The notes under the pieces: model-generated
The model's database searches: none
The model's input: only the letters and a program-made list of their open reading frames with translations
What the model was told of the DNA's origin: nothing
Origin: a virus
Lineage: Duplodnaviria > Heunggongvirae > Uroviricota > Caudoviricetes
IMG/VR virus record: IMGVR_UViG_3300029745_000175
Length of the DNA: 14,664 bases
Direction: 5' to 3' (one strand)
Part shown: positions 1-12,982 of the stretch, one piece after another
Position numbering within the stretch: the stretch's first letter is position 1
Layout of the letters: every line of letters begins with the position of its first letter
Program-made: the position numbers and the translations under genes

Positions 1-16
1 TAAGTCATTGATAAAG

Positions 17-78
17 TGGCGGAGAGAGGGGGATTTGAACCCCCGGTAGAGTTGCCCCTACTCCGGTTTTCGAGACCG
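17..78 (-). other. Partial tRNA-Ser(CGA), 3' 62 nt only (anticodon loop through CCA end); likely prophage att core duplicate, not an intact tRNA gene
   Basis: Reverse complement of 17-78 reads as anticodon stem-loop CGGTCTCGAAAACCGG (anticodon CGA), a long class II variable arm, T-arm GGGGGTTCAAATCCCCC and acceptor 3' strand TCTCTCCGCCA. Similarity stops abruptly at 79, so the D-arm and 5' acceptor strand are missing. Confidence 0.6.
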
Positions 79-570
79 ATGATACAGAGTCGAAAAATCA
101 AAGAGTTAAAAATTTTTCTTGGAATAAATGTCTTTAAATCGTACACGAAAAATCAATGAATTACATAACATTAAAGAAGAATATTCCAAGCCTTCTTGAG
201 GCTACCACCTGTTTTCAGGTGTCATTCAGACGTGATTTGCCCCAGATTGGGAAAGCACGCTTTTTTCTCAGCTATCGTCCTCTTATTTTGCCGTTACATT
301 TCTTTTTGCACTCTAATGATTAATTTACAATAATAATATCGGTAATTATTGAGTAATAATAAATTGATTATTGCAAATGTAATTTAATTCCATCTTAGCG
401 TTATATTCCAATCTTTAATCTCCGCATGGAACAAGTTGCATGCGTGACTATATTAAGACAACTTATAACCACCAAAACATTTGCTTTGCAAGCAAAAACA
501 GTGACCATTGACTCTAAGAAAATTCCGATCTATTGTTAGGGTCATCAAAGTTACTTAACAGTATTCCGAA

Positions 571-672
571 ATGAAAATACAAAGCAAGCTAATTGTCTTA
601 TTAAACATTATTATTGCATTTATATTATTTGAGCTTTTAGCTCAAAAATTTGGTTTGAGTACATTATTTTAA
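571..672 (+). CDS. Candidate small hydrophobic protein, 33 aa (MKIQSKLIVLLNIIIAFILFELLAQKFGLSTLF); could be a chance ORF in AT-rich DNA
   Basis: ATG at 571 and TAA at 670. Upstream sigma70-like promoter TTGACT (508-513), 17-bp spacer, TATTGT (531-536); canonical terminator downstream at 821-850. No clear Shine-Dalgarno. Confidence 0.2.
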   Translation: MKIQSKLIVLLNIIIAFILFELLAQKFGLSTLF

Positions 673-820
673 AGCAAGGTAAACAATATCGGGCACTCTA
701 GTTTTTATAATTAACAATTAAACGTCCATAAAATGTTATTTACTTTTCTTCGCTATTGTCACATCTTAATATAGTGGCTTACGCCACTCTACTTTCATCA
801 CATTTTGTACGTTTATGTAC

Positions 821-850
821 TCGCCATGAAGCTCTTTCATGGCGATTTTT
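821..850 (+). terminator. Rho-independent terminator, plus strand (10-bp perfect stem TCGCCATGAA/TTCATGGCGA, 5-nt loop, TTTTT tail)
   Basis: Stem 821-830 pairs with 836-845, followed by TTTTT at 846-850. On the minus strand the hairpin has no U-tract, so it is plus-oriented. Confidence 0.5.
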
Positions 851-936
851 ATTCTTAATCCAAGAACATACTCCCTATCTATAGCAAAATCACTTTTTGA
901 ACAAAAGAATAACGTATTTAGGTAATCATTACGAAT

Positions 937-1517
937 TTACCCTATAGGTGCTACTGGCCATTCAATATCCTGTGCAGTTGACGTATCAACACGGTTCAGC
1001 AATACCCGATACTTTTTCCAGGCTTCCAGCAACAAGGTTTCTTCCTCCGTTGCGATTTCCAGATCCACAGCATCCTGAAGCGGCGCTATATGCTCACTGG
1101 CTACCTGCATCAGGCTGTTTTTTGTTTCTTCCACCTCCCGGATCCGGAACAGTTTTTCTGCTTCCGTATCCTTCACCCAGGCTGTGCCGTTCCACTTCTG
1201 AAACTCCCCTTCCGGGGATAACCAGGTAACATTTTCCGGTAATGAGCCGAGTTCAGAAATAAATAACGCGTCCCCTGATGCCACGTCATAAACTGTTTTA
1301 CCCCGATGGTCTTCAACAAGATGCCACGATGACTCATCACTGTTGAAAACAGCCACGAAGCCAGCCGGAATATCTGGCGGTGCAATATCGGTACTGTTTG
1401 CTGGCAGACCTGTATGAGGCGGAATATATGCATCACCTTCACCAATAAATTCATTAGTTCCGGCCAGCAGATTATAAATTTTTATGGTCCGTGGTTGTTC
1501 ACTCATTCTGAATGCCA

Positions 1518-1518: not shown

Positions 1519-4495
<2,977 letters not shown>

Positions 4496-8811: not shown

Positions 8812-9018
8812 CTTCATTTTCACTTTCTTAAATCTAACGACAGACGGCTAACATTTAAGTATTGTGAAATATTATCAAATGTAATCATCATTGATTTACA
8901 AAAGATACATTTTGCCCCGAAAGGATTCCTGTCAGAAACATCAAAAGATGATGTTCTATACTGAGAACCATGGCAACACGGGCATCTAAAGTGAATATGG
9001 TTTGTAATATTTTCTACC

Positions 9019-9234
9019 TCAAAGTGCCACTACATGAACAGCCGCGGGGCCTTTAGGTCCGTTCTCAATACCAAATTCGACTTCCTGATTCTCAGTTAAC
9101 GTTTTGAAATCGTTGCTCTGAATAACTGAGAAATGGACAAACACATCTTTGCTACCATCTTTCGGCGTGATGAAACCAAAACCTTTTTCAGGGTTAAACC
9201 ATTTCACTAAACCAGTCATTTTGTTAGACATCAT
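9019..9234 (-). CDS. cspI: Cold shock protein, CspA family (CspI-like, 70-71 aa)
   Basis: [70 protein letters not shown] has the RNP1/RNP2 motifs (KGFGFI, VFVHF). Tandem ATGs at 9234 and 9231, with AAGG 6 nt upstream. The 360-nt upstream gap is consistent with a long csp 5' UTR. Confidence 0.9.
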
Positions 9235-9593
9235 TATTACCTTTTGAAGAAGTTAGCCCTTGGGCAGAATGGTCCGAAAAAAATATCAGAGAGAAAAACC
9301 AACAAGGAAATCTCAAGAGGTACAAATAATAAAATTATAACAATGACTGCTTCAGATAATTTTGTAACAAACCAGAACACCATTAACGCATGATTAACCA
9401 ACCATAGCAAGGATTACTTTTGTAAAGAAAAACACACGAATGAAACAATAGCTTTATTTATTAATAAAACGTGTCATTCTGTCTAATGACCTTTTATCTT
9501 ACCCTTAAGATTTCAAGGATTTTGACTCATGGAAGAGTCCTTTTTATTTAAATTTCACATTCAGCGCTAAAAATAATCCGATTTAATATTAAT

Positions 9594-12188: not shown

Positions 12189-12466
12189 ATTGTGGTACTT
12201 TTTGTGGGAGTCATCCACTTACGCACTTTGTTTTGCTATGCCAGCAGTTAGCTTCTGCTGTAAAACTATTCATGCAGCAAACCTGCACTTCACCACAATG
12301 GTTAGCATACTTTTCCTGATTAAGTTATTGCCAAATATGCTGGCCATTGTTTCATGTATTGGACCTCCTTACTATTTATTAAAGAGATCCAATATTCACC
12401 ACTCTGTCTGTATCTCCACTCAGGCATCAGCCTTCTTCGTTATCGTATACAGACAAACTATGAATT

Positions 12467-12682
12467 TTAATCAGTAATTATGACATTTGCTGCTGCAGGA
12501 CCTTTAGCACCACTCTCTACAGAGAAGGTAACCTTTTGACCTTCAAATAAGGTTCGAAAATTATCATTCTGAATCGCAGAAAAATGCACAAACACATCTT
12601 TACTACCATCAACAGGAGAAATAAAGCCAAAACCTTTATCAGCGTTAAACCATTTTACTAAACCAGTCATTTTATTTGACAT
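12467..12682 (-). CDS. cspB: Cold shock protein, CspA family (CspB-like, 71 aa)
   Basis: [67 protein letters not shown]...; ATG at 12682; divergent from cspF with a 300-bp shared upstream region. Confidence 0.9.
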
Positions 12683-12982
12683 TCTACATTCCTTAACTTG
12701 AGCCTTTCGGCATAAATGGCTTGTATAACAGAAACGACTTCGTACTTAATTGGAGAGACTCAAAGAAGGAATAAGTGAATAACACCTGAAATGAGAACTG
12801 CTTTAGTAAACTACTTCGTATATCGTCTGTTCTTCAAACCGACGCAATCATTAACGCATAGTTGAACATATGAAGCAATGTTTATTTTAGACATCCAGCC
12901 ATCTTCAACCCCATCAAAAAACTATAGCTTTCTTCAGGAACGTGTGTATAGTGCGCCCAGTTATCAGTATTAAGGAATTTTT

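Follow-up and report, generated by a model that had tools for sequence, protein, structure and literature searches.

Positions 392–936 of the DNA analysed here probably constitute a moron, that is, a small cassette standing between the last late gene of a lambdoid prophage and its attachment (att) arm, which would encode a peptide similar to the host protein YncL and would be expressed independently of late transcription. We assign this reading a probability of roughly 70%. The DNA (the window, 14,664 nucleotides, IMG/VR record IMGVR_UViG_3300029745_000175) is the late-gene end of an Escherichia coli lambdoid prophage, and 22 complete E. coli genomes match its positions 1–1000 with 100% identity. 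The last late gene is the tail fibre assembly gene tfa, the sole gene annotated by RefSeq on DNA identical to positions 1–1000. Lambdoid morons, such as bor and lom of phage lambda and the gene of the superinfection-exclusion protein gp15 of HK97, are AT-rich inserts between late genes that carry their own promoter and terminator, are expressed from the prophage, encode membrane proteins and are variably present among related phages. The reading is built on the anatomy of the cassette, the coding constraint on a 33-codon open reading frame (ORF) within it, the relationship of the encoded peptide to YncL, and the mobility and distribution of the whole unit.

An earlier sequence-only reading had described the 858 bp between the att core and tfa (positions 79–936) as one AT-rich spacer without a long ORF, harbouring a small independent plus-strand transcription unit for either a type I toxin-like membrane protein or a small RNA (sRNA). 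The spacer is indeed AT-rich (30.9% GC vs. 47.6% in tfa), and its longest ORF has 55 amino acids (156–323). The individual features turned out to lie where they had been placed, whereas the view of the spacer as a single unit did not survive: the search of positions 85–930 against 5,426 complete E. coli genomes resolved two independent blocks, and the spacer is a mosaic whose first part, 79–273, is unrelated to the cassette. The promoter, the membrane-peptide ORF and the terminator of the proposed unit hold as well; its likeness to type I toxins does not.

The 33-codon gene and its relationship to YncL

The ATG-started ORF at 571–672 translates to MKIQSKLIVLLNIIIAFILFELLAQKFGLSTLF (33 amino acids). 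Its best 17-residue Kyte–Doolittle mean is 2.94, from residue 7; one transmembrane helix had been predicted from the sequence alone. Coding was judged against a diverged clade formed by strain GF54 and its relatives (loci L008, L030, L058, L063 and L076), which are 78% identical to the window over 360–940. The start, the frame, the length of 33 codons and the stop are all kept in this clade. All but one of the 17 nucleotide differences are at first or third codon positions (16), and the resulting amino acid changes, five in number, are conservative; the Nei–Gojobori ratio of nonsynonymous to synonymous substitution rates (dN/dS) is 0.11. When the same substitutions were placed at random, so few amino acid changes without a stop were obtained in 0.045% of the trials (permutation P = 0.00045). 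The other two frames show 9 and 13 changes, with stops present. Within clades, the ORF polymorphisms are synonymous in seven cases and nonsynonymous in two. Since the frame, length and stop are kept and dN/dS is 0.11 across a clade of 78% identity, the ORF is, judging by the codon pattern, a real gene under purifying selection. The balance of synonymous and nonsynonymous changes in homologues, named beforehand as a possible refutation, thus speaks for coding.

No annotation over the ORF was found in any record inspected (RefSeq rows among the matches listed), and the exact peptide is called as a gene, without a name, only twice among ~15 billion predicted proteins. Public data also contain a 43-amino-acid frameshift variant (protein P0002), which is identical for 26 residues and then acquires a new tail. 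Because such a variant exists, some copies of the gene are decaying.

In the NCBIfam search, YncL (NF000537) was the sole family found at E values up to 10 (25 bits, E = 1.3e-5). Three natural variants of the peptide all match only YncL, with 25.0, 23.5 and 22.5 bits and E values of 1.3e-5 to 7.5e-5. Controls against the YncL model were clean: the reversed sequence gives no match, and the prophage protein YnfT matches its own family only. BLASTP against YncL of E. coli K-12 (b4598) aligns residues 1–28 with 1–28 (Met1–Gly28) without gaps, with 39% identity and 64% positives. The two have in common S5, K/R6, V9–L10, N12, A16, L19–F20, L22 and K/R26–F27–G28; both have ~31–33 residues and a single transmembrane segment, the hydrophobic core of which begins at residue 7. 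Searches of the peptide against Pfam, PHROGs and PADLOC gave no matches. On this evidence the peptide is best classed as a distant prophage-borne paralogue of YncL and not as an equivalog.

One of the published findings on yncL concerns kilR, which we take to be a gene of the Rac prophage. Data from RNA interaction by ligation and sequencing (RIL-seq) show yncL as a target of the sRNA KilS, whose gene lies inside kilR (PMC8175672). YncL itself is a stress-induced inner-membrane protein of 31 amino acids; when it is produced, the membrane is depolarised to a sublethal degree and the nucleoid condenses (PMC12542507). In vivo, RseP has YncL among its substrates (PMC10470546). The yncL transcript of Salmonella was first catalogued as an sRNA, STnc1110, and requires sigma-S for its expression (PMC5437024).

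The resemblance extends to the layout of the units: both yncL and the cassette gene have a short monocistronic RNA (predicted in the present case), a leader of ~25–28 nt and a −10 box of the CTAT type. In contrast, yncL occupies the chromosomal context patD–yncL–ortT whereas the cassette gene adjoins tfa in prophages, so that synteny is not shared, and there is no similarity at the DNA level. The 3′ untranslated region (UTR) is 178 nt long in the cassette, with extra conserved hairpins, vs. ~55 nt in K-12 yncL.

Expression signals, distribution and mobility of the cassette

The promoter-like site TTGACT-17-TATTGT, reported earlier on the plus strand, is present as described. Its −35 box with flanks, CATTGACTCTAAGA, is invariant in all haplotypes but one, although it adjoins a block that is 45% diverged and contains indels; the −10 box reads TATTGT in the window and TATCGT in the GF54 clade. 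K-12 yncL has the −10 box CTATACA and a leader of ~25 nt, the cassette CTATTGT and a leader of 28 nt. As far as can be told from the −10 region, the cassette promoter may use sigma-S. The centroid fold of 543–852 leaves the first ~41 nt without pairing, the AUG among them. Two small ORFs upstream, 426–539 (+) and 401–508 (−), one of which is annotated in phage PhiR70_1, were rejected as genes, being broken by indels in the GF54 clade.

The terminator, likewise noted earlier as a 10-bp stem with a TTTTT tail, consists of the stem TCGCCATGAA/TTCATGGCGA at 821–845 followed by TTTTT. Its folding energy of −15.2 kcal/mol (z = −5.8) was equalled by 0 of 200 shuffled sequences. Because the T-run exists on the plus strand only, the terminator cannot serve tfa, which had also been pointed out. 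In the scan of 1–1600, two terminator-like sites were found vs. 1.2 ± 1.0 in shuffles.

The cassette (392–936, ~545 bp) is present in 827 of the 5,426 complete E. coli genomes (~15%), in 47 IMG/VR contigs and in 24 metagenome contigs. One natural carrier is strain IAI1 (NC_011741.1), which has it near 853,040–853,221. Neither the cassette RNA pattern nor a degenerate peptide pattern occurs in the GTDB species representatives; the cassette was found only in genomes of E. coli, in phages of Escherichia, and in viral or metagenome contigs without assignment. It adjoins different tfa alleles in prophages at serU, in others next to ydfJ (the Qin locus) or sitABCD, and in three phages of the att-lambda type (ev099, PhiR70_1 and mEp332); from 392 rightwards, all these contexts have common sequence. 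It is absent from the ends of K-12 Qin and Rac and from the serU prophage of ST131. In strain GF54 (L008), the diverged cassette lies between two tfa fragments of the same strand (2024–2123 and 2728–2886). This bracketing suggests recombination between the 3′ ends of tfa as the way in which the cassette moves.

Taken together, the putative promoter and terminator flanking the ORF, the GC content unlike that of the neighbours (31.6% in 392–850 vs. 47.6% in tfa and 57.7% in the side tail fibre (stf) region), the position between tfa and the att arm, the patchy presence among related phages and the several contexts fit the classical moron pattern. The cassette differs from bor, lom and HK97 gp15 in being much smaller (33 amino acids) and in that its terminator-proximal RNA is more conserved than the coding sequence. 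In K-12 Qin and Rac, the corresponding place (after the tail-fibre/tfa region, before the end of the prophage) is occupied by the identical 37-amino-acid hydrophobic proteins YnfT and YnaM (NF041477), which lie beyond tfa and pin. They show no sequence relationship to the cassette peptide, each matching only its own NCBIfam model, and their loci carry ydfK/ynaE and pin, which the cassette lacks. Lambdoid prophages may recurrently carry small membrane peptides at this end.

What follows is the course of expression and action that we infer; this applies to transcription and the sigma factor as much as to the membrane location, the role in physiology and any function of the RNA. Host RNA polymerase would start at the promoter, perhaps assisted by sigma-S as for host yncL, and produce a monocistronic RNA of ~310 nt ending at the terminator, which would also keep antisense transcription out of tfa. 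From the unstructured leader, a single-pass inner-membrane peptide of 33 residues would be translated. By analogy with YncL, it would act in the membrane, either by mild depolarisation and modulation of a stress state or, like other small prophage membrane proteins, by superinfection exclusion. The conserved 3′ block (773–845) would at least stabilise and terminate the RNA and may also be released as a small regulatory RNA.

If so, a gene that ~15% of complete E. coli genomes carry, as do isolated temperate phages, has been overlooked, being unannotated in the records inspected. YncL-type peptides depolarise the membrane and shift cells to a quiescent, stress-tolerant state; a YncL-like copy supplied by a prophage would thus be a simple route to altered stress behaviour, persistence or superinfection susceptibility of the host. 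The conserved 3′ RNA block offers, in addition, a concrete candidate for a prophage regulatory RNA. Both small membrane-protein morons and coding "sRNAs" are established, so known biology would be extended and not overturned.

Several results weigh against this reading. None of the peptide variants reaches the equivalog cutoff of NF000537 (35 bits), while K-12 YncL scores 68.6 bits. A HMMER search of 1.84 billion representative proteins returned only the ORF itself and the 43-amino-acid frameshift variant, so the link to YncL has one profile and a single pairwise alignment of ~30 residues behind it. The five promoter-like sites in 1–1600 compare with 4.9 ± 2.0 in shuffled sequences, i.e., the promoter match alone occurs at chance frequency; the promoter and the ORF rise above chance because they are conserved in the diverged clade. 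The ORF has no Shine–Dalgarno sequence (UUCCGAAAUG), whereas K-12 yncL has AAGGUGG. The comparison covers two sequence clades, all from E. coli and its phages, which limits its power. Finally, conservation of 774–845 exceeds what a terminator needs, and a protein-only reading may be incomplete.

Table 1. Positions of the features discussed, in window coordinates unless a locus is named
Feature	Position	Strand	Basis
Chromosomal flank, yodB–serU intergenic DNA adjoining the att core	1–16		identical to K-12 sequence just 3′ of serU
att core, last 62 nt of tRNA-Ser(CGA) serU; tRNA fragment, no gene	17–78	−	K-12 identity
Putative att arm common to serU-integrating prophages	79–273		sequence sharing with ST131 prophage and SerU-LTIIb
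Upstream part of cassette: conserved block 392–475, variable block 476–505	392–505	+	clade comparison
Candidate promoter TTGACT-17-TATTGT, C just upstream of −10; predicted start near 543	508–536	+	sequence scan
33-codon gene (stop included), predicted single-pass hydrophobic peptide, distant YncL paralogue	571–672	+	dN/dS, NCBIfam profile, BLASTP
Variable part of 3′ UTR, including perfect TATAAT (706–711) and pyrimidine-rich unpaired stretch (735–772)	673–772	+	clade divergence, centroid fold
Stem-loop 1, AGUGGC-UUAC-GCCACU	773–788	+	fold, natural variants
U-rich unpaired 18-nt linker CUACUUUCAUCAYAUUUU, invariant save one Y	789–806	+	ORF-anchored sample
Stem-loop 2, GUAC-GUUUAU-GUAC, weak; broken by two singleton variants	807–820	+	fold, natural variants
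Intrinsic terminator, 10–11 bp stem and U5 (U6 in most haplotypes; UUUCUU in GF54 clade)	821–850	+	scan, fold
tfa (tail fibre assembly), convergent with the cassette	937–1518	−	RefSeq annotation of identical DNA
YnfT/YnaM loci beyond tfa and pin	L083 3891–4004 (Qin); L084 7294–7407 (Rac)

The 3′ region and the alternative readings

Divergence between the clades is distributed unevenly along the cassette. It amounts to 16.7% in 392–475, 44.8% with indels in 476–505, 16.2% in the promoter (506–542), 25% in the leader (543–570), 17% in the ORF, 33.9% with indels in 673–734 and 23.1% in 735–773; it then falls to 6.5% in 774–850 (3 of 72 positions, ~4%, in 774–845) and returns to 29.4% in 851–936. 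Conservation of this 3′ island was judged in a sample anchored on the ORF, independently of the island itself. The island accompanies the ORF at all loci but two, L064, which diverges after stem-loop 1, and a further one that ends at a contig edge. The 118-nt stretch 735–852 folds with −27.2 kcal/mol (z = −5.3).

The sequence-only reading had offered an sRNA as the alternative product of the unit. The ORF is no chance feature of a non-coding RNA, and to that extent the suggestion falls; the conserved, structured 3′ block leaves room for it in another form, since the block could be an sRNA or merely a stabiliser and terminator. It is therefore conceivable, at clearly less than even odds, that the locus has a dual function, which would add to the YncL-like moron and not replace it: the 3′ end (from ~735 or ~773–790 to 850) would be a trans-acting sRNA of the Hfq type, derived by processing of the 3′ UTR or from the TATAAT at 706–711, and would regulate host genes by base pairing. 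Precedents are known. In AzuCR/AzuC and SgrS/SgrT, a short RNA combines a ~30-amino-acid peptide with a conserved non-coding segment and an Hfq-type terminator, as the cassette RNA does; here the conserved segment stands 3′ of the ORF and could be a plain UTR, and Hfq binding and a target are predicted at most. STnc1110/yncL is a further precedent (PMC5437024).

The conservation of the block compared with its surroundings, with a linker that is invariant save one position, speaks for such an RNA, as does its layout: after an unpaired 5′ stretch come a stem-loop rich in GC, a linker rich in U, a short hairpin, and the terminator with its U5–6. On the other side, none of the 21 predicted pairs (0/21) shows a compensatory change, the sequences being too similar; four one-sided changes are compatible with wobble pairing and four singletons break a pair. 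The changes in stem-loop 1 are C-to-U (G·U), A-to-G (U·G) and a loop change, while one singleton turns the closing A–U into U·U. The TATAAT box is perfect in the window, but it has no usable −35 and reads TACAAT in GF54, and the U-tail is degraded in the GF54 clade. In addition, the low divergence of the block could be a result of recombination, because the L005 type is a mosaic of a window-like left half and a GF54-like right half whose breakpoints fall near the block.

A predicted duplex gives a lead to a target. Positions 735–766 could pair over 31 nt with the ydcT stop and the ydcU Shine–Dalgarno sequence and AUG (L009 1798–1837), at −33.8 kcal/mol and 3.3 kb from host yncL. The scan behind it took in two K-12 regions that had been chosen on other grounds (1,824 windows on both strands, 128 kb in all, ~3% of the genome). 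With 40 shuffled seeds in the same 128 kb, none (0/40) reached this value, the best being −31.4 kcal/mol. The pairing is, however, rich in G·U pairs and weakens in natural variants to −31.9, −28.1, −26.1 and −17.8 (GF54 clade) kcal/mol. We regard it as a lead only. Within the phage window, the 3′ block showed no complementarity beyond its own antisense.

No family reached its gathering threshold over the 3′ region in the Rfam scan, and three known RNAs that, like the cassette RNA, end in a terminator and occur in (MicC: near) E. coli lambdoid prophages were rejected. MicC (RF00121), the only hint, scored 22.5 bits vs. a gathering score of 90 (E = 1.1); the duplex with the ompC leader has −15.9 kcal/mol, compared with a background of −14.7 ± 3.3 and −26.5 for the real MicC control, and other haplotypes do not retain the UAUUGUCACA that the two have in common. 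HnrS (EcOnc10-12) was excluded on size and strain distribution, being a 66-nt RNA confined to strains positive for the locus of enterocyte effacement (PMC13502914). PasB of enteropathogenic E. coli had been considered since the Pas preprint describes the DNA on either side of PasB as rich in IS009, to which the window has a match. The complement of the published probe is absent from the window with up to three mismatches, and the PasB locus of E2348/69 lies between a tail assembly gene and gpJ, unlike the cassette. The IS009 match (RF02111, 218 bits, 977–1175, minus strand) lies wholly within the coding sequence of tfa, on its coding strand; this "sRNA candidate" family is here a conserved piece of the tail-fibre assembly gene. 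A full-text search for the sequences returned no paper, and no report of a stable transcript, of Hfq binding or of a target of the cassette RNA was found.

A perfect 12-nt inverted repeat, ACTATATTAAGA (447–458) and TCTTAATATAGT (764–775), connects the upstream block with the base of stem-loop 1. It is probably fortuitous, as it is lost in the GF54 clade. A long-range pairing of 434–458 with 764–788 was rejected because it is not conserved.

Somewhat more doubtful still is a fuller version, in which the cassette would be a two-in-one lysogenic-conversion element made of the YncL-like peptide and an Hfq-type sRNA derived from the 3′ UTR (773/789–850, or from ~735). The sRNA would then reprogramme host genes, for example the ydcSTUV–patD operon of transport and putrescine catabolism that adjoins host yncL. 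An undescribed prophage sRNA would in that case exist in ~15% of complete E. coli genomes, as a new phage-borne dual-function RNA.

A type I toxin–antitoxin system, with the peptide as a membrane toxin held by an antisense RNA in or adjoining the cassette, is improbable on the sequence evidence, although an unconventional antitoxin is conceivable. Like Hok, Ldr, TisB, Ibs, ShoB and ZorO, the peptide is small (33 amino acids, within the <60 typical of such ORFs), hydrophobic with one predicted helix, and encoded on a mobile element, and its relative YncL, when overproduced, depolarises cells and reduces their viability (PMC12542507). In some families, regions overlapped by antitoxins are conserved, as the 3′ block is here, and there is one minus-strand promoter-like site (GTGACA-18-TAACAT, 762–733). 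The −35 box of this site, however, varies freely among haplotypes (GTGACA, ATGACA, ATTACA, ATAACA, ATAGCA), and no minus-strand terminator-like site was found in the scan of 1–1600. A direct repeat connecting the upstream region with the mRNA leader, as expected for a divergent antitoxin of the istR/ohsC/orzO kind, was not found, the locus is single-copy without tandem repeats, and the 12-nt inverted repeat is lost in the GF54 clade. The leader is short, and a translation-inactive fold was not seen in the centroid of 543–852, where leader and AUG are free of any fold-back occlusion; the predicted duplex of the 3′ region with the translation start of the same RNA reaches −9.1 kcal/mol. The cassette thus differs from type I loci in having no detectable antitoxin RNA or structured leader, and the peptide resembles no toxin family: PADLOC gave no match, and YncL is the sole family found.

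Finally, that 508–850 is non-functional AT-rich DNA in which promoter, ORF and hairpins arose by chance is scarcely credible and in our judgement refuted by the dN/dS result: although the promoter-like matches are no commoner than in shuffles, RefSeq rows among the matches listed are without annotation and the ORF is so seldom called as a gene, the codon-level selection, the specific YncL profile match, the strength of the terminator (z = −5.8) and the intact travel of the ~545-bp unit between phages and attachment sites all oppose it.

The attachment-site arm and neighbouring genes

Identity of the window to K-12 covers 1–78 and ends at 79, and ARAGORN found no complete tRNA in the att core region; the left end is therefore, on the sequence, a prophage junction that retains a tRNA fragment, as had been assumed at the outset. 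In phage SerU-LTIIb, the serU fragment is annotated as a pseudo tRNA-Ser. Positions 1–273 are 97.8% identical to the serU prophage of ST131 and unrelated to it thereafter; that prophage has different tail genes and lacks the cassette. The part 79–273 is also found in SerU-LTIIb. Because it adjoins the att core in serU prophages with quite different tail-fibre genes, we read 79–273 as the att arm of a serU-specific integration module, independent of the neighbouring tail genes. An 18-nt direct repeat in the arm (91–108 and 146–163; 89% identical, 55 bp apart) could represent arm-type integrase sites.

The two adjacent hairpins placed earlier at 188–221 were recovered at 189–203 and 206–221 (−15.6 kcal/mol, z = −3.0, with 2 of 200 shuffled sequences folding equally well). 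The first (AGCCT/AGGCT) has lost two pairs in the ST131 copy, where the second is conserved. A weak imperfect hairpin at 231–260 on the plus strand, followed by T6 at 261–266, is kept in ST131, with a stability no better than chance (z = −0.6). Transcripts that enter from yodB could be stopped by it, or those from the int side when the phage is circular. A sib/tI-like role of 188–266, in which int transcripts would be terminated or processed across attP, was set aside as speculation, as the hairpin at 231–266 is no stabler than shuffles.

The serU att arm is fused to 340 bp of E. coli chromosomal DNA in two free phages, ev099 and PhiR70_1, and in the prophage that strain RM10410 has at its bio locus. 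The segment (L007 2155–2494, L006 2067–2406, L001 3739–4078) consists of yodB–serU intergenic DNA and the 3′ part of serU; its last 78 bp equal window 1–78, and the rest lies left of the window. It is located in the b-region, adjoining an AraC-family regulator and insertion sequence fragments, and looks like a fossil attR junction, acquired when excision was imprecise or through recombination with a prophage at serU.

Beyond tfa, the side tail-fibre region contains two minus-strand ORFs in different frames, 1518–2027 (169 amino acids) and 1838–4492 (884 amino acids), which overlap by 190 nt. In strain 789 the region is annotated as a single long gene. A frameshift in stf or another arrangement of the genes may account for the two ORFs. 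Further into the window, two minus-strand matches to the cspA thermoregulator (8973–9388 and 12404–12843; 116 and 156 bits) correspond to two cold-shock-protein genes with their 5′ UTRs, located among the lysis and late-regulatory genes of the prophage. K-12 Qin also has a cold-shock gene, cspI, adjoining its lysis genes.

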